Source: Psammoneis japonica | Taxonomy: Eukaryota | Direction: 5' to 3' | NCBI GenBank assembly: GCA_008632985.1 | Contig: QPGO01000028.1 | Location: forward strand, 429,598 to 493,597 | Length of the DNA: 64,000 bases | In this document: one piece after another, positions 1 through 64,000 of the stretch | How the letters are laid out: each line of letters begins with the position of its first letter | Numbering within the stretch: the stretch's first letter is position 1 | Notes under the pieces: model-generated | What the model was told of the DNA's origin: nothing | The model's database searches: none | Seen by the model: only the letters and a program-made list of their open reading frames with translations | Program-made: the position numbers and the translations under genes

Positions 1-28
1 AGCTGCGGGGTGGAAGCGCAGCAGCACT

Positions 29-2230
29 TTAAAGACAGAATTTTGGTTTTGTTTTGCATCGTGGCGTGGTGCGAAAGGAGCGCAACTTGGCTTGGTTGGC
101 CATGCGGAACAGCTTCTTCTGATGAAGTGCCATCTTGCAAAAACATCTCCATCCTTCGGTTTCTAGAAGGCCGTGCTCACATGCGCAGATGGCGCAGGTG
201 ACGGGATCATCCTTGGCAATGATGGCAAGGGGTTTGGACGTGATCTCCCCATTCTCCCATTCAAGCATGACATTGTAGCTTGAGCCTTTCCAAGAGGGAT
301 CATGGGGTCGCAATGGTCCTTCATGAGATGCGATGCATCGGAACTTCCTGAGAGTTGAGTCCTCGTCTTCTTGCTCAATGTGGTGCATGATGTCATTGCA
401 GGCCAGGACTTCCTCGTGTTCATCATTGTTGACGGAGCAAATGAACTTGACCAGTTCAGGATTGCCTCCGATTTTCCAGTCGTGGTCCTCAACGGCTTTG
501 ACGATGCGGGCTCTGTGGCATTGTCCATCCTCTTGTGGCTTCATGAGGAAGGTGCGTCCCACGACATCCTCAGGGTCAAAGACCAGCATTTTGGGCATCC
601 TGATCGCCTCCCCATCTGGCGAATCTGGCGAATTCTTGGAGTTGTGGTGGGATTTAATGACAGGGTCAGCAGATTCCTCATCAGGAGGATCAAGACGCAG
701 GTTTGGAGCAGACGGATCACGGGTGGAGTGCACATTGGAATGGCAGAGAATCTTCTGAGTGTCATCAGAAAGAATCTTAAATGTCATTTGGTGACCAATG
801 TGTTCGGCGATGCCAATGAAGCGACCACATAATTCACGGGATTCGGACGGCCAGTCAGAATCATCCAGGTGGCAGTGCACGGGTTCCCACCATTGAAAGT
901 GGAGGAGCGGGCTGATGTCGGGAGCAGAGCCGGACAGCACCTCGGTGGGGGTGCGCCAGTGGAGCTTGGCGGACGCCGTGTGGTTGAGCACAAAACACAC
1001 GCACATCAGGGCAAGCAGCCAGGTGCAAGCCGGGGACCCGAAGCAATCCATGATGGTGTTGGCCGTGGTCTTCACAGGTTGGTGGTGGCGTTCAGCAAAA
1101 TTCTGGTGCTGGTGATGGGGCTCGCTTTGCCAACTAGAGATGAAGAGGGTGCAAAGGATGCCAAGAACCTTGTTGCTGATCTCAACCTGAGCATGGTCGC
1201 TGATGAGCTTGGACGGGGCACCACGGTCACGAATGTTGTCTTCGAGGGTGTTGACAAATTCTTTGTCAGTTTTGGTGCCACACACGTCAGCGACGAGAGA
1301 TTCCGTGCCAACAAAGAGCTGGGCGCTGGTGCAGCCAGAGTCAATGGCAGGGGTGTTGGAGCAGACCGTCTTGGTGGCAACGGGTTCATTACGTCAGTGG
1401 ACATTGAGAGCTGGGTTGGGCGATTTGTGCGGCCTTTTTCAGGTGCGTGCTGGCTGGCATGCGGGCGCACTGCGTCGTGCAATCGAAAGTGCGGCGGACA
1501 GTGTCCTTTGGGAGAAAGCCAAAGCAGGGGCAGAGGGACTCAAAGTCGGGATCCTTGGGATTGAGTTCGCGCTCATGGCATTCATAGAAGAAATCAGACG
1601 TCGGGAGCAGATGATCATCAAGGACGGAGTCGGCAAGCATGGCATTGTTGACGACATGGCGGTGACGACAGTTGCCGAACTCATCGAAGAGGTTGGCAGT
1701 CGGGTCATCTTGGAGGTCAGACACGGCATCATGCCACGTCTCATCTTCCGTGAACTGGTGGTCAAGGACAGATGGATCCCATGTGTCATCACCAGTGAGA
1801 ATGACATGCGGCAGAGTGTCCCATTCGGCGTCGGTGTGTGGGCGCATGGCGATGTGCGGGAGGCCGGCTTTAATGTCAATGGGAATGATGCATCCATCAA
1901 TGGTGGTGATGTGCTGCAGACCATTGGGGACCTTGATGGACCGATCATTGACATCGTGTTTGCACCACTCGAGTTGGCCGCAAGAGTGTGTCGTCTTCCC
2001 CTTTCCAGTGCAGGTGCACTGGTGAAGGATGGCAATGGCAGGGCCACGTTGCGTGTGGATGACACCACCGGCAGTGACAATGGGGATGTCAACTGGTTGA
2101 TGATCGTCGATGCCTTGGACGTCAACCTGGCAACCAGTGCGGGCAATGACATGAACATCATCACCGGCGATGCCACCATTTGCACCACGATCCACGAGAG
2201 CGCCTTTGCGAGTTGACTTGTGGGTCGAGG
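29..2230 (-). pseudogene. CoDi pol fragment: aspartic protease, integrase and chromo-like C-terminal module
   Basis: LVDRGANGG protease motif, integrase core, then WWEPV..., FICSVNND and YNVMLEWENGEITSKPL. Multiple Y->C/H and R->C/H substitutions and frameshifts. Confidence 0.85.
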
Positions 2231-3875
2231 CGAGCAGATGACATTGTGGTTGTTGATGTGACGGCATTTGTGGCCGTTGATCTCAATGTCAGTGTCATGG
2301 GGCTTTGCGTCGGAGCGGACGGAAGGTGCAGAGCCGGGTGGGTTTTTGCCAGAACGGGTGGAAGGAGGCTGTTCAGGTGCCAGGAGACGTTGCAAGTCAC
2401 CGGGTGGCAGAGGCTTGCGCCTGGTGAGATGAGCCAGAATGGGGTTAGCATCGGCTGCATCGGCTGCAGCGTCAGATTGTGCTGAGGCTGATGCAAGATC
2501 ATGAGTGTTGGCGGACAAGTTGACATCGCCATCACTGCCAATGCGGAGGTCATGCAGGTTGACCGCCATCGAGTCATGGCAGTTGCCCGTGTGGGCAGTG
2601 CGCGAGCCAAAAATGATGGCCTCAGTGGACTGGGGCAAGGTGTCCCAAATGCGCTGGTGGTCCGGCGGAATGCGACACCATTGTTCCCTGGTGAGGGAGT
2701 TGCTGCGGGTCTGTGCAGCATGAGCTTGCATGACATCAACATCACTGTCGATGTTGAAGAATGCATCATCATCAGGGTCGTCAGGGACCAGGTCATGCTC
2801 GTAGATGGCACGGCGCGGAGCGCGAGGAGCCGTCTTGGGGGCGAACGTGCTGTTGCACTGTGCTGCAGCAGAAAGCAGGAGTCCACAGTGCTGTTCGTAA
2901 GAGAGTCCCTTTCCATTCTGCGTGCGAGAACTGATTGGCCTGATTCTTCCCCGAACGGAGTTCCTCGATGGGGTGTGCGGCGTTCTCAAGCATGACACGT
3001 TTCTGCCCAGCAGAAAAATGGTCCGCACCCGGGACAAGAGCTTCACACTTGCGGAGCTGGTCCTGCCAGTGGAGCATGAAGGCATGAGTGGAACCTTTCC
3101 AGGTGCCATCACCAAAGCAAGCAGTGGCGAGGTACATGAGAAGGGTCGAGGACTCCAGGGATGCGCAAGTGGAAGCAAGGGCACACTTGGAAAGGTCATG
3201 ACACACCACTTGAGCATCAGAGGAGCTGACATGTTGATGAACAAGAACCTTGCCTTTGTCATTCTGCAAGATCCGTTCGAATGCGGTGAACATGTGCTTC
3301 TGTTGTTCAGCAAACAGGGCCTTGTCCTCAGCTGCAGAGGGCTTGTACGTCGGGTCAAGAATGCGTGCGACATCTTGGGAGTGGGCCTGTGCGATGATGG
3401 AGGTGTGCCACGTGTGCCACTGTTTGTCACACTTGAGAAGCGCGAATGCAAGTGGGTCACGTTTGATGCCTCGTTTAAAGTCACGCATGGGATCATGTGG
3501 AGTGGGAGCAGATGGTGCTGCACCCATGGAGAGGGATGCCACACACTCAGGACTAAGACGACAGTTGGTGAACTCCTCTTGTGTGAACAATTGAGGGTCA
3601 TTGCTGACATCCGCGCTGCCACGTGCTTTTGCCGCATGCAGGCTAATCAACACAGCCATCTGTGCTTTGTGACCATGTGGCAAAGGCATTTGATTGGTTC
3701 CGTCGTTGCACACAAGGGCATCCAATTGCATCGGAGTAAAAGTGAAAAGGTCCTGATGCGAATCGGTTCCATCAATGTTGAGAGCGGAGCGCAATGGACT
3801 GTCGGCAGCTTGATTCAGAACAGTGCCTAGGATGTGCTCGAGGCCATTGATTTGTTGTTGCCTGGTGAGAACCAT
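2230..3875 (-). pseudogene. CoDi gag (frameshifted)
   Basis: MVLTRQQQINGLEHILG...FKRGIKRDPLAFALLK...WHTSIIAQAHSQDVARILDP, continuing after a frameshift near 2910 as LSYEQHCGLLLSAAAQ. Confidence 0.75.
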
Positions 3876-4019
3876 GTTGCAACTGGGTGGATGTCGGAAC
3901 CAACTGGAGTCGGAGGGTGAGCTTGAAATAACTTGAAACTTGACTTGAATCTTGACTTGATGACTTGGACTGTCTTGAGAGTCAGAAGCCGCCGGGCTGC
4001 GATGTCCCATTCGCAGTTA

Positions 4020-4911
4020 AGTGCTGAGCTTCCCATCCGGTCCGTAGAGTTGTGCTGGCACGTCCAAACCCGCAGCTGGTGACACTTTGGGTTGCTTGAG
4101 AGCGGAGTGACGGGTTAAAAACCCCTGCTGACAAGCTGGCTGGAGGTGGACAAGACCTCCGAACCGTTCTTATTTTATGTCGGTTGGATGACCCGATCAG
4201 GCCGGCCAAATTTGGTGCTGTGGAGGGACGAACAAACGTGGGAAATGCACCCTCGCCCCAACGCAGGCTGTGGTCACGAATTGCTTCCTCTCACAGTTGT
4301 CCTCATGGACCCTGTGGGACTGTGGAAGACCAGCAATCCGGCGCAGATGCGAGGCGGCAGACTTGGCGTGCGCAGAGCAGAGTCCCCGCCAGAGTCGGGG
4401 ATTTACATCGTGTGCGCGTGAATTCGTGCAGATGCATTGGCAGGATCCGCTGCAAGGAATCCGGAATCTCGGATGTCTGAGAATTCAGGAATTCCTGGCC
4501 AAACAAATGTCCGTTGAACAAACACATCCAACAATGGGAGGCATCGGATAAATCCAAATGTGTGGATTTAATCCAGTGTTCAGCAGTGAAGAAGGTAGAC
4601 ATGTGCTTCCGCCGCCAACGGTGCGCGTTGTCGAAAATTTCTCGATGACGATGATGAACGCTCAATGGATGACAAAGAGCAAGACTGTCAATCTGACAGA
4701 AAATGAAGATGACTGGGTGGAAGAAAACAACAACTCCTTGCTGCTGTCTAAATGGCAGATGAGTCTCCATGCAGAGACCGATGCAGGAGCCGAAAGACTG
4801 GTGTCGTGATGTCGGTGCTGCTGTTGTCATTCTTGTGAGCTCTGTGGCTCGAAAGCAAACTACATCGCGCGACGTGCGCGGAACTGAGAGCACACACAAT
4901 CATGTGTGACA
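4020..4911 (-). repeat. Probable 5' LTR of the CoDi element (inner boundary approximate)
   Basis: Non-coding segment upstream of gag that starts TG on the minus strand at 4911. The partner LTR is outside the window, so the inner end is not confirmed. Confidence 0.5.
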
Positions 4912-7900
4912 AACTAAAATCTTGTTCAAATCCTGTCAGCTCCGGTCGCCCACCTGATTTCCTCTTGGATTGGACTGGGTCTGGACGGCCTCCCGATGGT
5001 GCGCTCTGGTGTCATCCCGGCAGACCTCCTGGTTTGCTGTCCTGCTCATGCTCAGAGCAATCTCCCAGTCTGTCAATTGTTGGCAATTCAATGGATTGGT
5101 TTAACGAGTGGACAATTGCATGGTGTCGGGTGCAGCAACGGATGTGTTGTTTCCATTTTGCTGTCTGTCTGTCTGGCAGTCATGACTCTCACCACTTCTC
5201 TTTTGCACTGGCAGATCTTCAATCCTGTTTTTACCAGGCTTTTGATTCTCCCAGTGTGGGGGGGTGTCAGTGGAGAGGGTCATTCCTGCACAGATGGTGG
5301 GTCACTCTCAAATTCACCCTTCCCACGGAAAAACAGGGCAAAAGGTGGCAATCCTGGGGAATTTTGAGAAATTGCACAGCAAAACCAAACTAAGATCTGG
5401 AGGCAGGCCACCACGAACACCATCAGAATTGTGAGCACATTCAAATGTTTCTTGAAAACTGGTGGTCAACTCCACCGCAGCAGCAGCAGCAAGAAAGCAA
5501 ATGGCAAAAATCCAAACGATGTCCCAACTGGCAAAGGTTCCGGGAAAGATTGTGATCCACACCGCACCTTGACTGAGCTCAGCCTTGTGCTGACAGATTT
5601 GGTTCATTCCCACATCTCAGACTTTCCCACCTGCATGTGTTCCTTGAAACCAACTGATCCACCATGAAATCCCTTGTTGTGACCCACAAAGACATCCTCC
5701 AAGAGATTGACACCTTTTGAGGTCTTGCTGATGCCACCATGAGAAATGAAAAAAGATTGTCAGACAGATTGGGGTGTCCATGGTGCAAGTGGGTGCAGAG
5801 AGGTCTTGTCAAAACCTTTTGTCCCAGCATGACAAAAGAAAAATCTGACAATGCCACAAAGTTTGACAGAGAACTCAAAATCCCCATGTGTGTGCTCCAC
5901 AAACACCATGGCTTGTGTCATCAACATGTTCAACAAAGTAAAACATCAGGCAATTTTGTGGGGAAGAATCTGCTTGTGGACCAAGAAACAAGCAGAACAA
6001 GTGCCGGACCACCAACGTCTGTTGGAAACACAACAAACACATGCCACGATGTCCAGAGCTCATCTCAAACACTCCAGAGATGCCCCACACATCAACCCCT
6101 TTTATCCACATTTATTGTGGAATGATTGAGGCACAGGTCAAGAGGGATGAGAGGAGGGAAACAACAACAAACTTGACGAAACACACCAGAATGATGACAA
6201 TGGCAGCAGACTCACACACCAAAGGAAACAAAATTGATGTTCTTTTGTGGAACGGCACTTGTCAAAATTGCACCAACATGTGACGGCACTGCAGACAAAT
6301 GCCAACAACATCCCAAGTGACTCGCCTTGTGAAAAATGGTGACAAGAATGGCAGACGCGATGCGCAGATTTGCCACAGTGGCTGCACAAATTCTGTGTGG
6401 AATTTTTTGTTTTTGCACCAGGGACCAAAAAAATCACACCGTGTGATTTTTTTAAGCTTTGCCAGTTAGCCTGGCACAGCGATGTGCTGCAATCCATGGG
6501 AGGTCTTCTCTTTCCCTCTTCTGTGCCACTTACAGACCTCTCAGTTGGGAGTGGGATGGACTCCCCCAGTCACCTCATCATTTGGGCTTGGCATGCGCAA
6601 AACCCGGGCGCCACACACGGATTTCTTTTTGCAGCTGCTTGTGCCAAACACTCTTTCGATGTGACATGACACCACGCTGTTGTTCCATGTCAAGTTCTGA
6701 AGAGGTCACAATGAGAAACCAATGGCAAAGTTTTTGGTCTGCAAGAGATGCAGCTGCTGTCACAAGCACCCCAGTGTGGCACCTGGGTTTTTCATTTCAG
6801 AGCATTTCAAAGTGTGTGTTTTTGACTTCTTGTTGTCACAGCAAGAGCATGCAGATGAGGACCAAAATGATGCAAAGAATCATGCTTTGACATCATTGTC
6901 AATTCCACGGGGGTGCTTGTGTCATTTGTCAACAGCCATGTGTTCCGCATGAAAAAGCAATTTCTTGGTCGAATGCACAATTTCCTTGTTCAAAAAAAAA
7001 GCACCAAGACTGAACACCAAACAATTCTGAGAGAACATGGACAGATGGTGTGTTCCGGTGCCCTCTGCTGTGTTTTGTGCAAAAGTCTGCAAATGACATT
7101 TTGTGTGTGTGTGTGTGGGAACATGCCATGTCTGCCAGAGCACCACAACACACTGTCTCCATGTCACCCTGGTGCATCATCTGTGTCTCCATTCTCTGAG
7201 AGTCTGTGAGGTGACCCATGGGTGTGTGAAGCGTGCGTGCATTGGTCCACACATGGACTCACAATGGAAAATGCCAGTGGCTGACCCATCTTGAAGGCCG
7301 GAGGCATCAGAGATGGCTGGCTGGCACCGAGATGATGTGGTGGTGCATGGCACACACAGTCAATGGTCGTGTCAACAAGTCAGTGTGTGTTGCACTTTTG
7401 CCAGGTGGTTGGCTGGTTGGATGACATGGTCCAGGTCCAGTGGGACCTCGCACTGCAGAACTGTGACATTGACAGTTTTTTGAATCATGTCTCATGTTGA
7501 GCGCACACATTTCTGCATGATTTTGGCAAAAATTTTGTGGTGCAATTGTCAGGGTCAATCCACATTCAACAAATTGTAACATTTTTTTCTCCTGCACCAT
7601 TCTCAAATGTCTTGAGAATGGCGCAGGGCAGGCAGATCACCCAAAACTTTGAGCACAAACAGAGGGGTGCTGCATGTGCCACAAACTTGGTTGTTTGTTT
7701 AACATCAAAGACAAGTGTGTTCATTGTTGACCAGATCACAAGCTGCAGAGCTTGCATGCAGAATTCTGTGGGGCAAATGTCACAAAAAGTCCCACCTCAG
7801 GCTGGAACATGTCAGCTGCAGCAAAATCACCTGATTTTGGCAAATTAAGAATGCACACATTGTCCAGGTTCCTTTGAGAAGTTTTGACTGCCATGCGCAT

Positions 7901-10900
7901 CAAGTGTCATTGCCAAACATGTCAAAAGCTGGGCGTTTTCATGCCACATGATGTTGCAACTTGAACTTGCAGCACAAAACCAAACAAAAAACAACAACAA
8001 AACCACATCTCCCACCACAGGGCTTGTTCTTTGTTCACATGTTGATGGCCACATTGTCTGTCAAGGTGAGAGCATCATCACACAGCAATCAGACAGTGAT
8101 TGATTTGATGGTGCTGTGTCAAATGTGTTGTTGATTCTTGCTGTCACGCTGCATTTAGACATGCCAACAAGCAGAGTGCTTGCTGATTTTTCTGTTGTTC
8201 TTGTGACCACAGCACACACAAGTTCACAAGCACTGAGTTTATTTCCAATTTAGATGGCCCAATGTGCATCTAGTGAATGTGTCCACATGATTGCTGTCAT
8301 TGTCTTTTTCTCATGACAGGCACAGAAAATGACATTTTGGTTTCCAAGTGAGGCAACAGTTTTGTTGACAACACACCATCTGCAACTTTCAGCAAGGACA
8401 GATGACATGTCCCATTTAACACATGTTGGAGATGGCAACAACATTGCATCTGTCACATTAAACTGGTCTGTCACATCATTGCTCATTGCTCATCACTTCA
8501 GAAGCCTTGTGCGCTTGTTGCTTTTTCAACCAACACCAAAGCTGAATTTTTTGTTCCTCTGTTGATTGCATGGCATGGCAAATGCAGTGCACTTTGTGCT
8601 TCATCATGGGACAATGCAGGAAACCAAACTGTGAAATGGACAGGAGCTCCAAACCATTGGCAACCAGATCTGTGATCAGCTCATCAAGCTCATTCCAAAT
8701 CCATGCTCAAATGGTTCAGAGCAGCTGTCCTTCCTTGCATCTGTGCATCATCCAAAATGGAGCTAAATTTGCCACCTGTGGACACTCTAGTGACGAGCCA
8801 ACCATCATGCCCAAAATGCAAAAAGATTTCTTTTTGTCACTGTGGGCTTGCAGCAAATCCAGGGGGGACATTCAACTTGGCACCCTGCATGCTGAAGCAC
8901 CAAGAAAATTTTGTGTTAAAAACAATGGGAGAGAAACATTTGGGAGCACAGCTTTTCTGGGTTTTTGAGTTTTCTCTGCTGGTGGGTTCTTGACATTGAT
9001 TTTGAACATCAGTTTGAATGTTTTGTCATGTGGCAAAGCACAGCAATTGTGTGGTGCAGCAGCTGATGTTTGCAGCACTGCAGCTGAGGCCTGGGTGTGC
9101 CAACCTTGCAACAACACCCAAAATTTGTCGTGGTTCAAAAGACTGCTGTCGCATCACATGAACAAAGATGAGCCAAAGAACAAGCCATTGAAGAGCAGGT
9201 TTTAAATTTGCCCAACACCTGCAGCCAAGAATGAGGGTGGTGGGGCAAAATTGCAGAAGAAGCCTGAGGAAAGCATGCCCAGAATGACAAAAATGACAAC
9301 AATCAGGAAAACATGGCAGACAAGGCACAGAGGTCATTGCAGAAAAGCCAATTTTGGCACTGGAATGTCAAGTGCAGTTGTGCATGTGACATTTTTTGTG
9401 CATGGCACATTGCGTTTCTGCAATGCACAGTCGACTGCCACAGAGCTGTGAACAAAAATGGGTGGAGACAACCCTCCTGGAACATGCTGTGATCACACAG
9501 AAACATGACACATCATGGACAGAAGCTTGACATCAATGTGCAGCAGGTCTGTAAATGTTCACAAAGCACAAATGTCACAACATCACAGAGGTCCAAGTGG
9601 AGTGAGGAAAGCTGTTGCCAAGAGTTCTGTTCACTTTCTTGCACACTTTTGACAGCAGCAGGCAAGCAGATGCTCAGCACACCCCCAGAGGGGGTGATCG
9701 CATGCTGCGTGCATGCTGGCTGAGGACTGCCATTGCAGCCTCTTCCTGGTGCAATGCCCTCATCACTTCAAGTGCTTTTCACATCAGACATCTCATTGAC
9801 AAACTTGTGAAACTTGGTTTTGTGTCAGCATGCACCAAAAGTTTCATTGTTTGCAATGGTCACTTTGCAAGTTTCTTCCCTGCTCACCTCGCCTTGGTTG
9901 ATTGCACAAAGGGCTGTCATGCAGTGGGAGCACTCAAGCCTTTCAAAAGTTTTGTGCAACCAATTGGGCGCACCTGCCAAAACATTTTGTGCTCCATCAA
10001 TTTTCTGAGCTCTTGGTTGGTTGGCTTTGATCCTCCAGGAAAATGGTCTGTGAGGCGTGCTGCAAAAGAACCTTGATTTCTCTCCCTGGAAGGTCAGCTG
10101 CTTCACATCATTCAGGTGCTGGCCTTGCCTGGTGCCTTCATCTTTTTTGTTGAGTGCTGCCAGAGCATGTCTGCTCACATCCAGGGCATCTAACTTGGTG
10201 CACCACACACATTTTCTGCCCTCGTCACTGCAGGCACAGCTGCAATCAACCCCAGAGGCAAGTCTCAAACAGAGTCTGATGCCAGCCAAACAAAGCAGAC
10301 ATTTTGCTGACTCATCTTAAGACATTCACCAGCTCATCTTAAAAAATTGCCCGTCTTCCATGTCATGAAAGTCAGTTTCTCCATTCACCAACACAACGAA
10401 TTGAAAATGCATGCAGAAGAAAAAAAATCCAATGTTTTTCACCTTGCACCACCTCAAGTTGACTTGCAATTTTCTTGAGATGGTTTGGCGAATGTCTTGA
10501 GGATGGATCTGTGTGCTGCAGTCTAATTTAAAAAAGGCTCGCATTTTGCACACTTCACTGTGTCATTTTGAACTCTGCCTCAGAGCACCCCAAACACTCA
10601 TGTGTTCATCAAGCCTTGTCAGGGCCATTGGACCACCACAAGAGCTGCACATTTGATGCTTCAAATGCCACTTGTTGCCTCATGCCAGAGGGGTCAGGCA
10701 GATGAAATTGCCAACATTGGCCTTCTCATGGGAAATGAGCCACAACTTTCTGGGGTCATCCAATGAGTGGTGTTTGACTGGCTGTTTGCATGTCTGCTTT
10801 CACTGAGCTAAAAGATTTGCATGGTCACAATCATCATTGGTGCATTCTTTTGCATCTTGCAAAAGGACAAAGTGCAAAACATCGCTGAAATTTAATTTTG

Positions 10901-19240: not shown

Positions 19241-19242
19241 AT

Positions 19243-50205: not shown

Positions 50206-50210
50206 CTTTC

Positions 50211-50379
50211 TTATGGACCAGCGGCATTGGGACAATGCAACGGATGTCTGGGACAGATGACAATCGTGCACTGGATGAGAAAGAAAGTGAGCAAAGGAGA
50301 GATCATCGGATCTCTCCGTGCTGTCTGTGCTGGTCTGTCCGACACAAGGGAGTGTGCTCCCCGTCTCGGATGTCTGTCA
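50211..50379 (-). repeat. 3' LTR (169 bp)
   Basis: Ungapped alignment to 57366-57534 with 22 mismatches. Preceded on the minus strand by the PPT at 50380-50388. Confidence 0.95.
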
Positions 50380-50521
50380 CCCTCCCCTGATGAGCAATGC
50401 AATGCTCAACAAGAAAGAAAGAGACAATCCGAATAAAAAGAGAGGGCCAGAATGGCAAAGAACAAAACAAATAAAACAGAGGCACACCCAAGACTCAATC
50501 CACAACAAAACCCGACAACAA

Positions 50522-53500: not shown

Positions 53501-54800
53501 TGCAGGAGCAGCATTCTTGATGCGGAGGCAGTGGTAAAATGCATGGGGCCAGAATCGGATCGGAAGGTTGGCACCAATTAAAATCACACGAATCGCGTTT
53601 TCAACAGTCAAGTGTGAGCGTTCAATGGGCCCACATTGGTTGGATGCACCAGCGCCAGAAGGACAGATGTTGCACTGGAATTCTTGTTCAAAGAGGTCAC
53701 GAACTTTGGGGTTTTTGCACAATTCCCCACCTTGGTCCATGAACGCATGTTCATCACGACAATTTGGTGAATGTCGATCCGAGAATCGGCGAAGCCACTT
53801 GAGAGGACTGGCCTTTGAAACCCTCGCCACTCCATGGAGCATCCGCGTGTGATGATCATAGACAGCAATCCAACATGTTTCACCATTGCATCCAAGACAA
53901 TCAACCTTGCGAGCCTCATTCTTGGAAGTCTGGCCAGCAAAAGCAAAGTCTACAGTGAGACCTTGGTGTGGTTGGGTCGCCTTCCGAGTCGTGTTCGGTC
54001 CAGCAGGAGTCTTGACTTGCTTGGCTTGGATGCACACAGGGCAACTTGGGGACGCCCTCAATGTGCTTGTGAGCATTGTACAAGCAGTGATCACTGGGGT
54101 GTCCAAGGCATTGATGCCATGGAAGACGTTCAGTCTCAACCTTGAGAGAGCGGACAGGAGCAGGGGCAGACAACGGAGCTGAGTCACACTGCATCGAAAA
54201 CAGCTCAGCATCCATCAGCAAGGGATCAGATGGACCTTGTTGGACGTTGACAAAAAAGACTGCACGTCGACATGCATCATCAACATCATCAACCAAGGAC
54301 ATGTCAGGGGTCGTCGATGTCGAAGGGACACTGGACGGAGACGGAGGAACCAGGGGTTGTGTGAACACCTTGCCATGTCGAAGAATGCCATGGACAACTG
54401 CCGCTTGTGCATCAGCAGAGGCAGTGCAAGTGCAAGTGCCGTCGGCACATGTCTTCTCAAGGAGCTCGGAGCAAATGGACTGAGATTTGAAACCAGAAGC
54501 CCGCGCAAAATCACGCTCATCAATCAAAGTGGAACGCAGACTGGGATGGTAAAAAGCACATACGAGAAGAAAGCCTTCAGGATTTGTTGCAGGCACCTGC
54601 AGGTGACCAAAGCCATGGGGAACCGCATCAGAGCCTTAAGGAGTGTGGGCGTGGAGGAGGTTCTTGTCCCCTGTGCAGGACACCCAAGCACCAGTGTGAA
54701 TCTGTGCACGACACATCGTTGAATCACGAAGTGCATGATTGATGGGAACGACTGGGGTTGCCAAGGATGCAAAGGTCACAGGTGACTCCGGGGGAGAAAA
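50522..54800 (-). pseudogene. Copia pol (protease, integrase, RT, RNase H), frameshifted and interrupted by a MITE
   Basis: WHQCLGHP..CPVC (HHCC), MDQGGE, GPIER, FWPHAF, LKTFGC, HALQGHPEAG and RNase H EAEF..LDNSSAI..HIDVQHF..ADALTK. Confidence 0.9.
51759..52154. mobile_element. 396-bp non-autonomous TIR element (MITE), 24-bp TIRs, 4-bp TSD GAGA
   Basis: Left end GACGCGTTCCAGCCCTAGGTGGGA against right-end reverse complement GACGCGTTCCAGACGTAGGTGGGA (2 mismatches). GAGA at 51755-58 and 52155-58. Excision restores RT HCVLPLKHALQGHPEAG. Confidence 0.92.
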
Positions 54801-55084
54801 AATCGGGGAGATGCGCGCGGCACTGAGAGGCAACAAATGCTGGGTGCCAGTCATGTCAAGATGCTCAAATGCTTGGTCTTGGTCAGTGGACAATGGAGCA
54901 TCAGCATCCAATGCAGGAGGATCCAATTCCCTCCCCTGATTGTGATTGCCAGGGTCATCATCAGGAATCATCTTGGGATCAGGAGCACCAGCCTTCGTCG
55001 AGCTCGAAAGAAGGGCAGCAAATGAGACAGGTGAAAGAGGAGGATCAGCGGAAGGCAACGAGTCGTTTGGACCCTCTTTCACAG

Positions 55085-57163
55085 TTACCCCGCTTGCAGG
55101 AGTTTTTGGATTGGAGGAGGATGGGCGGCATTGTTTGTCCGAACGCAACAATGGCCCTGGGAAAAATCCTTCTTGGCCGTGCCAGACTCAAGTGCATCAT
55201 GAGCATGCTGGTCACGTTGAAGGAACTGGGAGAACCGAGCAAGATGGGTGCACAGGTGCTCAGCATTGTTCAACACAGGACACTCATGGAACAAGTGGTT
55301 GTTGCCACAAACAACACATGGACGGTTCTGTGCAATGGCAGGCAAGGACTTGATCCTGTGGATGCAGGCCTTGTAGACACCATGGAGGGCTTGTGCATCA
55401 TCATCTGTGGGAACATCCACAGCAGCAAGTTCATTCACAAAACACTCCACAGTTTCCGCAGGTTCTTCCGCAGGAGGAGAGTCAGGTTCCTTGGGAGGCT
55501 CTTCAATCGCTGGAGGCGGAGTAGAAACTTCATCTTGGGGAAGCAAGTCAAGACCGTGGACAGGAGCTGCGAGAGGAGGAGGAGGCGAAGTGTGAAGACG
55601 ACGTGGAGGACATTTGGGAGGTTCCTTGACACGCAGAGCTGGACCATCCGGTTCCTTGAGAATCGCACTGACAGTTTCAACAATCTTCTTCTGGGTGAAC
55701 TTGTGTTGTTTGGTCTTGTCTTCCCCGGCGTCCGCTGTTTTACGGTGAAGGTGCTCGCCATGGCGGGTGTTGCTGAGAAAGACATCAAGCTCACCAGGGT
55801 CATCAAGAGGTGCATCAACATTGGAGATGATGGCGCGTAGCTGGAGGTAGTCTCTGAATAGAGCACAACAGCCAAGGACCGTAAGATTGTTTTGGTGCGG
55901 GCAGCTCTTGATCAACTCGTGCGGACGCTTTGTCCAAATCGGCAGGACATCAAAGAGAATCATCTTGACAGCCGCATGTCCATCACCATGACATTGGCGA
56001 ACGATGTCAGGGCACTTGGAGTCTGCCGGAAAAATTCCAACTTTCTGAATGCACTGGAAGACAGTCAGTTTCATTCGGTCAAGTGCTGCTGTCATCCGGA
56101 GAGGCAGATCATCAGTGGGATCATTGCCACAGGTGAAACCCCAATTTCCACCATCCTTGATAAAACACCACAGAGGGTGCATGTGCACACCACAAGCCAA
56201 GGCTTGTTGGGTTGCAGCACGAATTCCTTGAGGAGAGACATCATCACAAGTGAGAGGATCGCGAAGGAAAGACTTTGCATCCCAGTCAGTGCGATGAACA
56301 AAGAGTGAACCATCAGCAAGGATCAGACGCTCAGCACCATCCTCGTGACAAAGGTTTCCAGACTTGCAGGGCACCAGAGATTTTCCGAGTGCGACTTTCC
56401 CGGCTTCCTTGCACTGACAGCGGGCCAGTGCATCCTTTGGAAGTCCTTTCGGATTAAAGGCATGTAAAGCACTGGCAGTCGTCGAGGAAGAAGGCGTGCC
56501 AGTGGCAGTCACAATGGAGGGTGCAGGAGACGATGCCTTGGGAGCAGAGTTCTTCAATGCGGTTGTCACAGCTTGCTCAAATTGTTTTGGACCAGGTGGA
56601 TGAGCAGCCAAGGCCCCAGCAAAATCTTCAGGAGTTGGACCTGCAGCAGTGGTCGATTGAGATGTAGATCCTGGAGGAGACGCTGACGGTGGGTGTGGAG
56701 CATCAGAGATGTCATCCCAACACAAATGATTCTCGAAATTGGGGCAAAAGAAGAGACTGACAGTCCCAACATACATGGTTGTGGCATCTTGAGCGTCTGA
56801 GATGGCTTTGATCATGGCTTTCTGAAGATTGGTGAGGTTCAGACGGTTTGGGGCATCTTGAGGAGCTGCCACGAAGAGGGGAGCTTTGTCAATGAGCGGT
56901 CCAATCCGTTTGAGATCCTTGGTCAAGGTGGCCTGAGGTGTGATTAAATCATGAACGATCTTGTGATGGATGGTTGCAATTGCGTCGGGCTTGAGGCCTG
57001 GAGGAGCAAATCCATCCAGAAGATCTTCAGGAGCAGGTGTGGCATCTGAATGAAGGTCATTCAGGTGAGAATGGGCATCAGGTGAGCAATTCTGCTGTTT
57101 GAATTCGACCTGTGTTGACTTGATCTTGGTCAAATCGACGGAAGTTTGCTTGGTCGGCGCCAT
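55085..57163 (-). pseudogene. Copia gag
   Basis: 692-aa frame with a C-terminal knuckle CVVCGNNHLFHECP, located after the PBS. Confidence 0.8.
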
Positions 57164-57355
57164 GGTTGCGCGGGAAAAAAATCAAAATCCCACGTAGAAC
57201 ACTGGCATGTGGTCTACAGTGGTTGTTTGATCACAGACAGAGAGGTGAAAAAACAGCTGTGACAATGATGATGATTTCAACGAAGAAAAGGTCGCCAAAT
57301 CACACAACAGGCGTTGCAATGGATGAGCACAGAGGAAGAGGAACAGCGCACTGCT

Positions 57356-57365
57356 GCTCATGACC
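57356..57365 (-). other. Primer-binding site GGTCATGAGC (copia-type half-tRNAiMet GGTTATGRGC with one T->C change)
   Basis: Directly adjacent to the 5' LTR. The plus strand GCTCATGACC matches the tRNAiMet anticodon arm GCTCATAACC with TA->TG. Confidence 0.7.
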
Positions 57366-57534
57366 TCACGGACTGGCGGTGTCGGGACAATCTAACGGAT
57401 GTCCAGGACAGATGACAATCGTGTGCTAGATGAGAAAGAAAGTGAGCAAAGGAGAGATCATCAGATCTCTCCATGCTGTCCATGCCAGTCTGTCCGACAC
57501 AAGGGAGTGCACTCCCCGTCTCGGATGTCTGTCA
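57366..57534 (-). repeat. 5' LTR (169 bp)
   Basis: Ungapped alignment to 50211-50379. Followed on the minus strand by the PBS. Confidence 0.95.
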
Positions 57535-58359
57535 CTTTCAAAAAACAAATTCTCTCTGTGGCAGGTGCACAGAGCTGTTTTTCAGCGGAGCTTGAAATTC
57601 ATGCAAGATTGGAGTTGCCGGCATGGTGTGTTGGGAGAAACATTCAGTTTTTGCTGGTTTTTGACAACACGTGGAATGTCTGTGGGGTCAAGAAATTGTG
57701 CCAGACATTGGCCGGGATGTGTGTCGTGTGGTTGTGTTGGCAAACAAGAAGAAAAAGAGTGTTTGTGTCATTCTTTGGTGGCACTGCAGTCATTGTGAAT
57801 CATCAAATGTGATGGCAGATGTTGACTCGTGAGTGGGATGAAAAGTTGGGCTGCTTGGTTTTGTCAAGTGCACATCCACGAGATTTGTCTGATGTCGCCA
57901 ACAAGTGTGTTTTTGCACTCACCCATGCCTGAATGTTTTCAGTGGGTGTGGTGATTGTGCAAGGTTGAAAGACTTTGCAATCATGCCCAAACTTGACATG
58001 AACTGTCTGGCATGACGGCAATCATTCGCGGCACCATCTGGAACAACTGTCATCACATCAAAGCACCATCTGGCCATCCACCGGAACAACAAACATGCAC
58101 GCACACACCACACATTCAATGGCACACACCCACACGCCCGCAGCACCAAGACACAGCAGAAGGACAAGTGGCCAATGCTCCCCCCCCCCCCCCCCGCAGG
58201 ACTTTTTTTTTGTGTGTGGCCAATGCTGGCATGCAGGCCTGTTCCTTTGGCTCGCTGCCGGCCACTGAGTCCACGTGCAAGTGTTCGGGAGTTTTCCGAC
58301 TGTCAGTCTTGTTTTCCAGATGGACTTTGGACAGGCTTTGTGTTGTTGTTTAACCAATT

Positions 58360-58700
58360 TAGCAGCAAATGTGTGTGGGCTGCAGTCGGCACGAGACTGG
58401 TTCTTTGTGAAGAATTCATGCACCAATGGTTCAAGAGAAAAGACACGCAGCTTGTCGAAGACTGGGTGCAAAAAAGTGATGGTCATGCCGCAGAAGGAAT
58501 CAAGGAACTCAATCGCAAAAAAATGTGCTGGGTGCCTGCCACATCTAATTTTGCCAACATCGATGCCGCCTTTGCTTGTCAGAATGTCTTGGTGTGCATT
58601 CAGCACACAGTCAGACAGCAGCATGGTTTTGACAAGGATGCTTTTTGGCAGGATTTCACTGACAGAGTTCACACGGTTGTCGTTTCACCTGCGGGCACTG
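58360..58700 (+). pseudogene. Crinkler/RHS-type PD-(D/E)xK nuclease-like remnant
   Basis: LCEEFMHQWF...CWVPATSNFANIDAAF..NVLVCIQHTVRQQH resembles the YWxP...NFPxIDA....xxQxTVxxxH pattern after Y->C/H reversion. Confidence 0.5.
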
Positions 58701-61700
58701 GCTTTCAAAACACCCATGCAGGCTGCAGTCAACCTTGTGCTTCTGTCACTGGCAAAACTCTGTGAAGCCAGGGCTCAACTCCTCTTGTTCCCATTTCATT
58801 TCAAACTGTGGAAGTTGCTTGCACTGGCGCGGACATGACAAACATGACGGTGATGAAGATGGCCTTTCTCAATGAAGAAATCCATGCAGATGCACAAGAG
58901 GGATGGTCATTGCGAAAATTCCACCCCATGACTTGAGCAGCATTGACATGTCATGAGGGAAAGTGGACACTGCCACTGCTGCTGCTGTGCTGCCCACCAT
59001 TGTCATCTCTCTCTCTCTGTGATGCACTGTGGATTGTTGATGCTCACAGCACTGACAATCACAGTGTCATGTCACACCATTGTTGTTGCATGACCTTCCA
59101 CTTCAAGAGTCTTCCACAAACAGACAGTTGGTTGGTGCCAGCATCAGAAGGACCAGCCATTGCAAGTTGCAACATTGATTGAGAGGCGCACAGCCACACA
59201 CACACGTCTCCTTCCACCTTCTCGCAGCGACATTGGCATCATTGTCATTCACACAAACACCAACAACAGCAGCCAACATCATCCATGTTGCTGATGAAAA
59301 AGAAATTCAAGGACACGATGAAAGCAATGCAACAGTTGAGCCTGGAATGCGTTCTTTGGTGCCACGGCAGCCAGACAAAAAAAGCCAAAGCAACAGCAGG
59401 CGTCGTCTTCAACGACAATGACAACAACACAGCAGCGCGTGCTGCAGATGTCACCATCCAATGAACCACAACAAACAGGAGAAGGGGGCAAACAACAATG
59501 ACGTGAGCAAACCAAGGAACCAGCAGTCACACATTTTGGCATCGGTCAGACAATGGCCAGTTGCTTGGAGCCAGTTTGTCAATGGTTGAAAGACCTTTCC
59601 AGTGTGGCAAAGGTTGTGTTTTTACCTCAGCAGTTTCTGCACATGATCATCATTGAAGGCACACATCCCACTGGCTAAACGACTTGGACAGTGAAGGAAG
59701 TGAAGGAGAACATGAGTGAAAAGTTGGCACAATGCTTGTGCGATGCATTGCAACAAGACACATGTCTGGCTAATTTGCCATTCATTGAGCCCAACCAAGG
59801 TGTGATCGAGGTCCATCTCTGAGCTTTGCCTTGAGGAGGAAAGCAATGCAAATCACATCCCTTGCACCCAATGTCTTGAAGGTTAGAATGTGGCTGGAAG
59901 AGAACATCCATCATGCCATCTTGAAAGAAGAACAAGCAGATGAGAGCTCAAGCAATGACAATTCAAGCCCAAAAGAAAGGGAGGGGATCATGCCACATGG
60001 GTCCCAGCCAACCCACATTTGCTTCAACATTTGACTGGCAAACCCTTCTGGGCTGAAGCATGACACCTCACTGTTGAAATGTGTTGTGTGCCATTGGGGT
60101 GCGATGTTGAGAGATGTGCCAACAAGTGGGGAGAAATGTTGGGAGACAATGTTGCTGCCAATGCAGAGAGGGGCTGAAGCAAGTCCAAGAAAAGAAGCCT
60201 GCCAATGCAAATCTGATGGCTTTGATGCACACCAGGAGCATGGGGTCACTGTGTTGGGAAAATCAGCAGGGAAGCAGGAGCCAACCTCAAAGCAGATGAG
60301 AGCATGGTGCAGGAGATGCAGCAACTGAAAATTTGAGAATGGGCTTCTCAGTGCAAAAATTTTGACATGTTGAGAGAAGCACCAGCTTGACGAGTTTGAG
60401 AGGTGCGCAGAGCCAAGTGTTAAAACAAGCAAAAATTGTGCACAACTTGGGTTCCACCATTCATGGTGGCTTGTTGCAGCAAAACTTGATCTTTTTTGAA
60501 AACAATGGCCCACATCATCACATTGATTTTGGCACACCAGCCACAAGCAGTCAGAGTGATGATGACTCTGACACATGCTTGCTGCTGTCAAAATGCTTGA
60601 GCCAACAAAAAGATGCAAAAGGCTCACAATGAAAAAACTGCAAAAGGTTTGTGGTTTTTTTGCTCTGTGTGTGAAAAGACAACAACAAAGTTCTTTGACA
60701 CCCCTCTTCAGGCACTTGCAGCCTGAAAAAAAGATCTCCAACAAACAACATGACAAGCCCCCTTGTGCTGCACTTTCCACAGGCTCAGCTTGCAAAAAAC
60801 AATCTCATGAAAGCAGGTGAGATCACAAATGGTGTGGCTTGCCACACACCACCACCAACAACAACAACAGCTCCTTGTCGCTGGCCTCTCTCAAAATGAT
60901 GCCAGACCACAAACAACAAATTGCCAGGAGCCAGCAGCAAGAAGCAAGAGCACTGCTGGATTCAACCACCATGGACTTGCACTCACAAGAAAAATGACAG
61001 CAGCACTGCTCATCGTGGCAAAATGTGGAATTGTGAGTTGATTGGCTGTGGCCTGCTGTTTGAGTGAGACAACAACAGGCTAGCTCAAACCACAAAATTG
61101 CCAAACATCAATCAGAGATGATGCCCACAGCAGGGCTGATGATGTGCTGTCGTTTCAGGTGAGAAATGTTGGCACAAATCATTTAGATTTCTGCTTGTTT
61201 TTGCACAATGCATCTGTGTGTGAGACAAAAATGAGCTCTGCAAAGACATGTGTTTTCATGTCTCAAACCACAAACAACTCTTGGCAAAAATGTGGCACCA
61301 TGCCACCAACACAAACTCACCTGCTCTTGCACCAGCAGCTGTCACAACAAAGAATTGAGAATGTGGGGACACACCAATGAGACCATGCTCTGCATGATCA
61401 TGATGCAGTTGAAATTTTGATTTTTTGCCACTTGCCTTGTTTTGCATCTTGTGGATGGACTTTCAACTCATGGCCATTTTTGCACCTCTTTTTCTCTTCA
61501 TCAGATTGTGAGTCAGCACCCTTTGCAACACTTCACTCTGTTAACTTTTTGACACCTGCTGCCCACACAAACAAAACTCATTTTTGCAATGCATTGGTGT
61601 GCTTTTTGTGATGCATCAAAATGCACCTTGAGTCACTGTGGGTGACAATGATGAGTGAGCATGATCAACAAATCAAATTTAGGCACCTGAAAAAAGGCAT

Positions 61701-63372
61701 GGTTTGAGGGTTTGTGGCAATTGACAAGCCCACAAACAACTCTGACAGGTGTGGCATTGTAGAGCACAGAACAATGACACCAGCAGTCATTTTTGTTTGT
61801 TGCCACTTTGCTCCTTTGTTGAAAGTTGGAAGTTTGTCATGTGAGAGAATGGAAATCTTGTTTGTGCTTGCCATTGTTGCTGCCTCTGCTGTGCAAATCA
61901 CTCAATTTCTCAACAGTCACAAAACCTTGACACAACTCTTTCAGTGCCATCCTGCACAACTCACCCAAGTCTCCCATTGTGAAGGTCAACAAACCAGCAG
62001 CCAATCTTTGAGGCAGCCCACCATGCACAAAACAAGTGTGTGCAGAGCCAGCTTCCCCCAACTCTTCTTGCAAAAAAAAAACAGAGTTGGAATGCCACTT
62101 TTTTCACACAAACTCTTTTGTGCTGCAAGAGTGTTGGCACTGGTTTGAACTTTTGAACAGTCAGGTGCAGCGGAAGAACAGAAAAACATCACAGTGCAGA
62201 CCATCATTTTCTTGCAAATCACCTCCAAAAAAACATGGGAAAGTCCACCAAGATTTGTTTGCACAAGCTGCAGAGTGACAGAAAAAAGGTGGACACAACA
62301 AGCCACACCTTCACACCCACATTTCTCACCTGGCAGGGTGAAAACAACACACCGACTGCCCGGCTGAGCAGGCCAGCTCTCATCACCCTCGTTGAAAGTT
62401 GAGTCTTCAGCCTCCTCTTTTCAACGCATCAAATTTTTGGCAGGCTGCTAAAGTGCACATGGATTTTTTGAGCCCCCCAAGTGAAAAACACTGTTGTTTG
62501 CACAAGCAGGCTGACAGAGAGATTTTTCATCTGGCTGCAGGGAGCAAGCATGGTGGGCTGGCAGCACGCCACCTCCTCCTCAGTTGGCAGCACGTTGTGT
62601 CTTCCTTTTGTGACTTTGTTGGCACATGCAAGACACTGTGGTGCATGTGCCAACAAACCAGACAGCTGCAAACTGCTGGAGATGGCGTCACATTTTTGCA
62701 GCAGCTTGGAAGCTCTCTCCAAATGGACATGCATGCAGCGGCGCCAAAAAATGGTCGGTCACATGTCCGTCTGTGTCTGCCTCCTGCCCTGACCCCAAAT
62801 GGACCGGAGACAGATGGGTGGGACGAAGTTGGGGTTTGGGGCTGACCACTTTCAGAATGACCAAATTTGCAAGTGGTCTTTGCACATGAAATGGAATGAA
62901 ATGACTTTTGCATGGTTCGGGGTTTCACAAAAATTGCCATGTTCACTCATGTGAAACATTCGCAATTTTGCATTGCCTTGGTCATTTTTGGGTTGGGATG
63001 CCATTGACTCCTGGCCAATCAATTGGCTGTTTTTCTGTTTTGAGGTCATTTGCATTGAATGTTTGAGTGCCATTTACTTTTGTCTCTTTTTTGTGCCCTT
63101 GATCTGCTGTGTGGACATGATGTGTCACTTTTTCCGTTGAGATGATGGATTTTTGGATTTTGTGCTTTTTGCGCACGCTCGCTTTCAAACCGGAGATCGT
63201 GAGCACAAACAACTTGCTCAACCGCCTTGTTTCTGTGCCTGACAAGGACAATCACATGATGCAAGCCCAGATTGTTGCTGCATTGTTAAAAATCATTGTC
63301 CAGTGATTGCAGTCTTTGGCTGTGATGCCTTGCATGGTCATGTTTGCAGCTGGAGCCTGACAGCCTTCTTCT

Positions 63373-63630
63373 TTATGAGCCCTCCTCTTGTGTGCTCCTG
63401 AAGCAACCAAGGAGCTCCCTCAATGCCAATGATGTGTCCTTTGTTTTCCTGCCATCAAGCTTCTTCCCAAGATGAAGCCCCTTTCTTGTTGTCACTCTGG
63501 ACAGAGCCACATGAGCCCAGTTGTTTCTGCATTCAAAGTTGTTGACAACCAGGCTCTCTGAGGCAAAGTGGCCTCCATGTTGAACAAAAAGAAGCCTCTC
63601 TTTGCATTCGAATGACTGGCACTTTAGCAA
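63373..63630 (-). pseudogene. PIF1-like (Helitron-type) helicase C-terminal remnant
   Basis: SLVVNNF..NNWAHVALSRVTTRKGLHL corresponds to the helicase motif VI region YVALSRV with Y->H. Confidence 0.65.
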
Positions 63631-64000
63631 ACAACATTGTTCAGCTTGTGGTTGTGGACAGGGAGAACAAGGTCCAATTCTCTGGGCACCTGAACAAGGA
63701 CATGGGGAACAGACATTGCTGGCAGATCAAAAGGTTCTAGACTTTCAGATGTTGCCATGAGAGTCAGTCACAAAAATGACAAAGATCCAGAGGAGAATGG
63801 CTGGCCTGTCAGGACTTGTCTGATCACAAAAAATGAAAACACCACCAAATCACGTCTTCAGTTTTGTCAATCAAGAATTGGGCGACAACGCACAAAGACA
63901 ACAAGCACAAGACAGAGCATGTTGCCGATGATGTGATGCATTGTGCTGTGTTGTGCACCATCCACCTGCTACACCCAACCATTTGTGGGCTGCCAGCACC

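Follow-up and report, generated by a model that had tools for sequence, protein, structure and literature searches.

The transposable element (TE)-derived DNA in a 64,000-nucleotide stretch of the genome of the pennate diatom Psammoneis japonica (assembly GCA_008632985.1, contig QPGO01000028.1, positions 429,598 to 493,597 of the forward strand; the whole of this stretch is called the window below) very probably underwent a DNA-level, locus-targeted hypermutation of TA to TG or CA. The process is most likely the one described in the chlorarachniophyte alga Bigelowiella natans (Mettrop et al., bioRxiv 10.64898/2026.01.13.699255). The main sample comprised 42.7 kb of transposon-derived blocks, which were compared with 20.4 kb of host genes in the same window. 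The TA depletion of transposon-derived DNA in this diatom is a genuine and strong feature: the window contains 1,150 TA in total, with 265 in 42,733 bp of TE blocks (6.2 per kb) and 855 in 20,370 bp of host stretches (42.0 per kb).

Over the entire window, the observed/expected ratio (o/e) is 0.27 for TA and 0.63 for CG, and 1.47 and 1.50 for TG and CA. Measured in 1-kb windows, TpA o/e is 0.00-0.24 at 1-19k, 0.06 at 33-34k, 0.05-0.22 at 39-44k and 0.00-0.34 at 48-64k, and about 0.33-0.79 in the stretches separating these TA-poor blocks. The longest TA-free gap extends over 1,372 bp (48715-50087), followed by gaps of 1,077, 1,065, 1,046 and 1,015 bp. The list of TA positions shows that the edges of the depleted blocks are sharp, within about 100 bp or less, and a TA-free island at 22766-23264 is bordered on both sides by TAs every 5-40 bp. 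A first-pass annotation of this DNA had described the TE blocks as TA-depleted with sharp boundaries, and the densities and edges given here bear this out. CpG o/e varies independently among the TA-poor blocks, from 0.04 to 0.9. Values of 0.6-0.9 are kept in TA-free sequence at 1-4.5k, 14-19k, 39-42k and 50-57k, and values of 0.04-0.3 occur at 5-13k, 33-34k, 48-50k and 58-64k. In a 250-bp map, all CpG-poor blocks are TA-poor too, while the converse fails.

The depletion extends to the encoded amino acids. Tyr content is 0.0-0.8% in 10 TE reading frames versus 1.3-3.5% in 8 host frames, and Cys content is 3.1-7.9% versus 0.4-3.1%. Stop-to-stop open reading frames (ORFs) of at least 200 aa number 40, of which 26 lie inside TE blocks, many overlapping on opposite strands, in keeping with the long spurious ORFs reported earlier. 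As a direct consequence of the genetic code, a change of TA to TG or CA turns no sense codon into a stop. TAY (Y, pyrimidine) becomes TGY or CAY, NTA becomes NTG or NCA, TAA and TAG become TGA, CAA, TGG or CAG, and across a codon boundary T-ATN becomes T-GTN. Since no stops are created, a dead transposase frame of 1,566 aa is still open, spurious ORFs are abundant, gene calls are free of Tyr and Pfam misses the elements. The 1,566-aa frame had no match in Pfam, and a Pfam scan of 116 TE-block ORFs gave four relevant matches only, all weak or moderate.

Comparison with homologues gave the direction of change inside the window. The 1,566-aa frame is a Harbinger/PIF-like transposase ORF with seven homologues (about 860-1,570 aa, 27-39% identity), three of which carry PF13359, the Harbinger/PIF DDE domain. 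It contains 0.5% Tyr, versus 2.1-3.8% in the homologues. At 11 conserved columns, defined by Tyr in at least 75% of homologues, it keeps Tyr at 2, with 5 His, 4 Cys and nothing else, and it retains conserved Trp at 12 of 13 and Cys at 14 of 16 columns. The copia integrase ORF (52373-54214), compared with 150 library representatives, keeps none of 6 conserved Tyr columns (3 His, 2 Cys, 1 Trp) and retains Gly (19/19), Cys (5/5), His (5/5), Trp (4/4) and Glu (8/8); the median Tyr content of its homologues is 3.2%. The replacement of conserved Tyr by Cys or His claimed in the first-pass annotation is therefore found at 9 of 11 and 5 of 6 columns. Its further claim that Arg changes to Cys or His holds in kind and is modest in extent, with 3 of 28 conserved Arg columns in the Harbinger-like ORF affected (2 Cys, 1 His) and 2 others reading Gln. 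The motifs that it quoted, WEPVHCH, LTCSLCCGG, DKGH and HVALSR, are all present in their places, and LTCSLCCGG and DKGH correspond to TYSAYYGG and DKGY in the homologue consensus. A PDB sequence search gave no support for the helicase reading of HVALSR. In the copia integrase, the codon before each of the four Ile>Val changes, and before the only Met>Val change, ends in T, which points to conversion of TA to TG across the codon boundary, and one Val>Ala change reads GCA and one Leu>Pro change reads CCA.

The dinucleotide balance gives the same picture. The sum of TA, CG, TG and CA per kb is 237.5 in host sequence, 242.9 in TE blocks with CpG kept and 243.4 in TE blocks with CpG lost. Relative to host sequence, the CpG-kept blocks differ per kb by -34.7 TA, -4.7 CG and +44.8 TG+CA, and the CpG-lost blocks by -37.9 TA, -39.4 CG and +83.2 TG+CA. 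GC content is 0.465 in host sequence and 0.521 where TA alone was lost, and the drop in CpG from 51.6 to 12.2 per kb in the CpG-lost blocks marks a second, separate process. The two long terminal repeats (LTRs) of a retrotransposon are identical when the element is made. Those of the copia element differ at 24 of 175 aligned positions, of which 21 belong to the class of TA/CG/TG/CA interconversions, comprising 7 adjacent TG<->CA doubles, 3 TA<->TG/CA and 4 CG<->TG/CA differences. Read together, these comparisons indicate that TA is lost by A:T>G:C transition at TpA, on both strands and in TE-derived DNA only.

Public sequencing data support the assembled bases. In Logan contigs of one public run, 78% of the sampled words of 44001-54000 are present. 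The three runs listed include none from RNA, which carries no information on expression. One contig of 10,003 bases, at depth 62, matches 39980-49981 throughout apart from 7 differences and 1 gap. This contig crosses a TE block, host genes and most of the longest TA-free stretch, with no mixed calls in the TA-free block, showing that the TA-free bases are not a polishing accident. Logan contigs and the window differ at 1,795 variant places (1,414 transition, 376 transversion); contexts at 40 of the 1,795 places were mixed, some TA-related and some CpG-related.

A nucleotide-level spectrum was obtained from a related copia family in metagenomes. Over the aligned part, Tyr stays below 1% in 14 of the 150 integrase homologues and is absent from 10; eight of the 14 and two Tyr-bearing homologues all come from ENA, Logan and JGI metagenome assemblies. 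Copia-like proteins with zero Tyr and raised Cys and His (P0170, P0205, P0213, P0219, P0221, P0242, P0259, P0265, P0272, P0276, P0297 and P0305) occur in public metagenome protein sets, and such zero-Tyr entries were probably predicted from dead, hypermutated elements whose frames stay open. Scanning metagenome contigs yielded 80 loci, of which 54 form one copia family of about 75-89% nucleotide identity to locus L076; membership required an alignment to L076 of 1,000 bases or more with an identity of at least 74%, and the other 26 loci fell short of this. Most of the 54 loci come from one microbial-mat metagenome series. The spectrum was polarised against a majority consensus with 5,114 defined columns, in which TA-normal copies predominate. 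The near-identical L041, L053, L027 and L071 were left out of the consensus and of the between-copy comparison, and L043, L051, L068, L049 and L030 were also left out of the site-class and TG:CA-ratio analysis.

TpA o/e across the 54 loci forms a continuum from 0.72 to 0.01. L076, the most mutated copy, keeps 1 of 188 consensus TA sites, with 103 TG, 69 CA, 3 CG and 12 other outcomes, so that 172 of 188 sites were converted to TG or CA, and it keeps 139 of 196 CG sites. A>G changes in L076 affect 56.3% of adenines after T, 9.8% after C, 7.0% after A and 2.4% after G, versus 3.2%, 2.0%, 3.6% and 1.2%, respectively, in 15 TA-normal copies, and they reach 34.6% after T in six intermediate copies. 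The values after C represent a weaker A>G excess of L076 at CpA. Transversions in L076 amount to 2.3%, and A>C/T after T occurs at 8 of 183 positions. C>T before A is at 3.9%, versus 4.5% in TA-normal copies. The spectrum is symmetric, T>C before A matching A>G after T. The first-pass annotation had predicted an excess at TpA in a polarised copy-versus-consensus spectrum, and this excess was found in the related family; its central claim of A:T>G:C transitions at TpA on both strands, apart from CpG decay and opposite to RIP (repeat-induced point mutation), is upheld by the Tyr columns, the L076 spectrum and the mass balance.

Copies differ widely in the degree of conversion, from 2% to 96% of TA sites among 50 copies. 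Where transversions are about 1%, conversion can be as low as 5% (L038) or as high as 71% (L052). TA conversion is related weakly to transversions, with a Spearman rho of 0.44, and to CpG decay with a rho of 0.24 (p = 0.087). The hypermutation is thus copy-specific and not clock-like. At sites converted in both copies of a pair, the TG or CA outcome agrees in about 50-60% for most pairs, implying that conversion events are independent between copies; three pairs with 100% agreement are probably the same copy assembled twice. The flanks of the metagenome loci return to TpA o/e of 0.5-0.7. L040 (1-1283), from a different copia family and another metagenome project, has TpA o/e of 0.16 and CpG o/e of 0.78, and its nearest fetched relatives, L006 and L011 (67-70% identity), are TA-normal.

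These data bear on two explanations that would dispense with a mutational process acting on element DNA. The first, that there was no hypermutation at all, the lineages being intrinsically poor in TA and Tyr or the signal being an assembly or base-calling artefact at modified bases, is hardly credible. An artefact would be easier to entertain because the run that holds the window is possibly the assembly's own sample; the same signature in metagenome contigs of several projects, including some with SPAdes-style NODE names, nevertheless argues against a platform artefact, as do copies carrying TG or CA at one and the same site and the absence of mixed calls from the depth-62 contig. Intrinsic composition conflicts with the normal Tyr content of the Harbinger-like and copia homologues and with a single family spanning the whole TpA continuum around a TA-bearing consensus. 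Unmutated relatives, which the first-pass annotation had allowed might be equally poor, are poor in neither TA nor Tyr. The second explanation, RNA-level A-to-I editing of retroelement transcripts by ADAR- or ADAT-like enzymes, fixed by reverse transcription, has an extremely low probability. A-to-I enzymes favour a 5' U according to the preprint's Discussion (bioRxiv 10.64898/2026.01.13.699255), and the copia element replicates through RNA. However, the Harbinger-type element, a DNA transposon, is affected just as much, T>C on the sense strand (Tyr>His at 5 and 3 columns) matches A>G (Tyr>Cys at 4 and 2) in frequency, LTRs and unannotated, apparently non-coding islands are also hit, and CA outcomes make up 69 of 172 in L076.

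Fungal RIP is a parallel, being likewise a permanent transition hypermutation of mobile DNA that is confined to elements, acts copy by copy and in graded fashion, and leaves a dinucleotide skew. RIP depends on homology and length, whereas here a 400-bp element of very high copy number escaped and blocks that are now at or near single copy were converted. RIP changes C to T, mainly CpA to TpA, as described for RIPCAL; it creates TA and stop codons and lowers GC, whereas the diatom process destroys TA, raises GC and makes no stop. RIP was rejected for its opposite direction, the rise in GC from 0.465 to 0.521 and the lack of a C>T excess before A. Deamination of 5-methylcytosine, or CpG decay, also gives an excess of TpG and CpA and is present in part of the blocks, and CG methylation of diatom TEs through DNMT5a has been described (PMC9998398); unlike CpG decay, the process removes TA, and L076 keeps 139 of 196 CG but 1 of 188 TA. 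CpG decay was rejected as the cause of TA loss, being chemically unable to remove TA, and TA-free blocks exist with CpG o/e of 0.6-0.9. Some diatoms carry RID-related DNMT4 genes, which is a lead only (PMC9998398). Hits on both strands, in DNA elements and retroelements, in independent copies and with a preference for TAY in effect exclude RIP, CpG decay, RNA editing and intrinsic composition.

The TAY preference emerged when each event was oriented to the strand of the converted A. In 10 partly converted copies, conversion by the base 3' of the A was 36% for C, 33% for T, 19% for G and 16% for A, and by site class in 8 partly converted copies it was 74% for RTAY (R, purine), 51% for YTAY, 49% for RTAR and 38% for YTAR. 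YTAY went mostly to TG (252 versus 166 CA) and RTAR mostly to CA (68 versus 29 TG). Given this preference in the metagenome family, the TAs surviving in the window are expected to be YTAR, and this was observed: YTAR accounts for 43.0% of surviving TAs in TE blocks versus 17.2% in host sequence, and RTAY for 8.3% versus 30.3%. Measured against host density, TTAA survives in TE blocks at 0.60 and ATAT at 0.01. The window thus replicates the TAY preference independently.

Along individual copies, same-strand runs of TG or CA showed no excess in 13 of 14 copies, the exception being L024 (p = 0.023), and several copies showed an excess of TG/CA alternation that is explained by per-site context. 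No spatial autocorrelation of converted sites was found up to 1 kb in 8 partly converted copies (largest |z| 2.1, 20 bins), which argues against patches and against a nucleosome-like period. With neither same-strand runs nor clustering, conversion looks stochastic and site by site, not like a processive sweep along a single strand. Per-copy TG:CA ratios are heterogeneous beyond the effect of site (chi-square 53.9 versus 23.7 +/- 6.5; 0 of 2,000 permutations), which could stem from insertion orientation relative to replication or transcription, or from shared sub-family ancestry. The contrast is between L029, L034 and L052 (45:18, 29:7) and L023, L064 and L058 (17:29, 11:23).

Present-day copy number, estimated from Logan contig depths, does not predict which DNA is hit. 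The TA-depleted element at 38.7-44k has depth 62-230, at or near single-copy (80% likeness), and is fully TA-depleted. The copia element has a summed depth of 1,500-58,000, indicating a multi-copy family, and is hit as well. Inside it lies an insertion of about 400 bp resembling a miniature inverted-repeat transposable element (MITE), which has a summed depth of 25,000-58,000 versus 62 for single-copy sequence and is spared, with TpA o/e of 0.87 and CpG o/e of 1.47; three contigs skip it exactly (51754>52155). Depletion of near-single-copy blocks and sparing of a very high-copy MITE suggest that targeting is not simple repeat homology. The MITE may be too young, too short or without a directing mark. 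The first-pass annotation's description of the process as repeat-restricted is accordingly not borne out, and its statement that almost every transposon block is depleted applies to the blocks it listed but not to this insertion.

The closest known system is that of B. natans. In mutation-accumulation lines of this alga, 231 of 302 nuclear point mutations fell in one nucleocytoplasmic large DNA virus (NCLDV) insertion and one virophage insertion; 230 of these were A>G or T>C changes, each of them at a TpA (bioRxiv 10.64898/2026.01.13.699255). The preprint gives rates of about 6e-7 per site per generation, about 1000-fold over background and in some lines only, with bursts of up to 45 mutations in single lines. 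It also reports that coding sequences poor in TpA and rich in CpA+TpG are enriched for reverse transcriptase and DDE endonuclease domains, and that the insertions are mildly depleted (Rho TpA 0.45). The two cases share nearly exclusive A>G/T>C change at TpA, to TpG or CpA depending on the strand, confinement to foreign or mobile DNA, a fall in TpA and a rise in CpA+TpG, and heterogeneity, between lines there and between copies here. They differ in lineage, Rhizaria there and a stramenopile diatom here, and in target, viral insertions there and ordinary TEs of several classes at o/e 0.00-0.1 here. A literature search for TpA loss in diatom or other transposons returned nothing apart from this preprint. 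Its available text does not contain the words 'diatom', 'stramenopile', 'flanking' or 'trinucleotide', and its supplementary tables may hold flanking-base data bearing on TAY. The first-pass annotation had named no characterised mechanism; this still stands in that the authors of the preprint propose an ADAT2-like DNA adenine deaminase, although the signature itself has since been reported in B. natans.

Conversion of 5'-TA-3' to TG or CA amounts to an A:T>G:C transition of the A, or equally of the T on the other strand. It occurs on both strands, in DNA transposons and retrotransposons alike, and stops at element boundaries. Individual copies are struck independently and to very different degrees, with TAY preferred on the strand of the converted A, RTAY going first and YTAR last, and conversion of TA nears saturation well before CpG decay. 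We propose that the enzyme would be guided by the silenced or foreign state of the chromatin and not by repeat homology, and that the transposon would end up permanently inactivated, RIP-like but chemically opposite. As for the chemistry within this explanation, the leading candidate is a polynucleotide deaminase that prefers a 5' T and quite possibly deaminates adenine in the DNA, leaving hypoxanthine. Amphioxus ADAT2 deaminates DNA adenine in vitro and in E. coli, preferring GAA and hairpin single-stranded DNA (PMC10354150), so the ADAT2 candidate is not supported by context. For the adenine mutagenesis of the first-pass annotation, the TE-confined A:T>G:C change stands, and the choice of adenine does not follow, since TpA is palindromic and attack on T fits equally.

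Attack on thymine, in which a TET/JBP-type dioxygenase would oxidise T at TpA in silenced TEs to 5-hydroxymethyluracil (5hmU) or 5-formyluracil (5fU), with mispairing to G giving T>C, is an unlikely but substantive alternative. The symmetric spectrum suits it, T>C before A fitting as well as A>G after T. On the other hand, 5hmU itself pairs with A, and a further oxidised or mispairing form would be required. In dinoflagellates, a TET/JBP homologue produces 5hmU, which is found mainly in repeats and aids TE silencing, and older work cited in the same paper found T replaced preferentially in TA and TC (PMC11572971); the available part of that paper reports no mutation footprint.

Biased mismatch correction, in which T:G-specific repair in methylated chromatin would resolve replication mismatches at TpA to G:C, is considerably less probable. 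Bacterial very-short-patch repair, which converts CTAG to CCAG/CTGG and so depletes CTAG, offers a precedent. Some blocks show strong CpG decay, implying cytosine methylation, and all CpG-poor blocks are also TA-poor. Yet conversion varies between 5% and 71% among copies of the same transversion age, TA conversion does not track CpG decay, and saturation at 172 of 188 sites with 2.3% transversions suggests a rate far above the expected supply of mismatches. The single-line bursts of up to 45 mutations in B. natans also speak against it (10.64898/2026.01.13.699255).

The proposed TpA hypermutation also shares with the hypermutation of cDNA by APOBEC3 and of double-stranded RNA by ADAR the use of an editing enzyme as a mutagenic restriction factor. 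APOBEC gives C>T/G>A on one strand. In the process described here, unlike that of APOBEC or ADAR, both strands of chromosomal DNA are hit and same-strand runs are absent from 13 of 14 copies. ADAR acts on RNA with a 5' U preference and is described for metazoan lineages (10.64898/2026.01.13.699255, Discussion).

Several points weigh against a DNA-level hypermutation like that of B. natans. Because TpA reads the same on both strands, attack on adenine and attack on thymine leave an identical sequence, and the preference of amphioxus ADAT2, the one ADAT2 shown to act on DNA adenine, is for GAA and not TA. In B. natans the mutations arise live, whereas in the diatom the process is known from its sequence footprint alone, and a defence function is an interpretation. 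Polarity inside the window comes from protein comparisons, the mass balance and the LTR pair, and the seven TG<->CA doubles of the LTRs could stem from TA or from CG. The nucleotide spectrum belongs to a related family in metagenomes and not to the P. japonica genome, and the read support may come from the assembly's own sample and so not be independent. Finally, a very high-copy MITE escaped hypermutation.

Cytosine-based hypermutation is established as a defence against TEs (RIP, APOBEC), and the opposite chemical direction has been reported once, in the chlorarachniophyte preprint of 2026. The diatom case adds a new, unrelated lineage and a saturating, TE-wide footprint of TpA-specific hypermutation, and the signature in the diatom and in metagenomes of several projects suggests a process that is no one-strain oddity, acts on several TE classes and has a measurable motif, TAY. 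In practical terms, the GC content of repeats rises, TAA and TAG are erased, gene callers emit long Tyr-free 'proteins', and TEs are hidden from Pfam. A natural DNA adenine deaminase, should the enzyme turn out to be one, would be relevant to genome-defence biology and to base-editing technology. More tentatively, TpA-directed A:T>G:C editing might be an old and widespread genome defence of protists of the stramenopile-alveolate-rhizarian (SAR) group, present in Rhizaria and diatoms and common in environmental diatoms; a TAY-specific enzyme, either a DNA adenine deaminase or one that modifies thymine, would then be aimed at foreign DNA that is silenced. If so, the graded series of copies, together with a record of which diatom genomes carry the footprint, would suffice to identify the enzyme by phyletic profiling.

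Table 1 Transposon-derived features of the window.
Feature	Position	Strand	Evidence or remark
Composite TA-depleted TE-derived block	1..19080		TpA o/e 0.00-0.24 per kb; right edge about 19.06-19.12k
Weak integrase-like ORF	32-1393	-	PDB integrase cores, E 0.025-0.066
Harbinger/PIF-like transposase ORF, 1,566 aa, hypermutated but open	14381..19078	+	Homologue comparison
TA-free island, 498 bp, between host genes	22767..23263		TA list; TA dense on either side
Small TA- and CpG-depleted block	32750..34400		At 33-34k, TpA o/e 0.06, CpG 0.07
TA-depleted element with two ORFs	38700..44300	-	TpA o/e 0.05-0.22
3'-5' exonuclease ORF	40862-41884	-	Pfam PF01612, E 1.1e-5
DUF6729 ORF	41888-43066	-	Pfam PF20499, E 1.6e-4
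Composite TA-depleted block holding copia element	48100..64000		TpA o/e 0.00-0.34; gaps 1,372, 1,077 and 1,065 bp
Copia-type LTR retrotransposon	50215..57535	-	PF25597, E 1.8e-10; PF07727, E 5e-4; LTR pair
Copia long upstream ORF, putative gag by position, no Pfam match	57181-55088	-	ORF order
Copia integrase	54214-52373	-	Element order gag-integrase-reverse transcriptase on minus strand
Copia reverse transcriptase	51772-50525	-	Last in minus-strand order
Copia LTRs	about 50215-50380 and about 57370-57535	-	Pair 88% identical
MITE-like insertion of about 400 bp within copia element, TA-normal	51755-52154		24-nt terminal inverted repeats

The transposon-derived features are collected in Table 1. 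In the first composite block, CpG is mostly retained at 1-4.5k and 14.3-19k and lost at 5-13k, and in the last it is lost too at 48.2-50.2k and 58-64k. A protein atlas search gave only a DUF6729 lead with a score of 0.92 for 38915-40792 and no match for 1442-3646. The named relatives of the copia protein of the window are from Nitzschia inconspicua and Cylindrotheca fusiformis, whose copia proteins are Tyr-normal. Repeats within the window amount to three pairs in all. A direct repeat (10531-10905 and 11123-11520, 72% identity) and a tandem direct repeat (33916-34048 and 34056-34187, 85% identity) both lie in TA-depleted blocks. Just outside the edge at 38.7k, the TA-normal segment 38001-38667 is multi-copy (summed depth 391), contains many variant letters and is present in a second run too; it is probably another repeat without TA depletion.

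Host genes occupy 19.1-22.7k, 23.4-32.7k, 34.5-38.5k and 44.6-48.1k, and the remainder of the window is transposon-derived or unannotated. They include a short-chain dehydrogenase, a glycosyltransferase, an Na/H exchanger, a CSC1/RSN1-type channel, a cyclophilin and an aspartoacylase. The aspartoacylase-family gene (46893-48080) has 1,325 relatives, and those with names among the best 120 are all from diatoms; its best named match is from Cylindrotheca closterium (65% identity) and its best match overall has 71% identity. In the Na/H exchanger gene (27733-29082), the ORFs 27733-28404 and 28405-29082 lie end to end and match successive parts of PF00999, the split at about 28402-28404 pointing to an in-frame stop, a short intron or an error.

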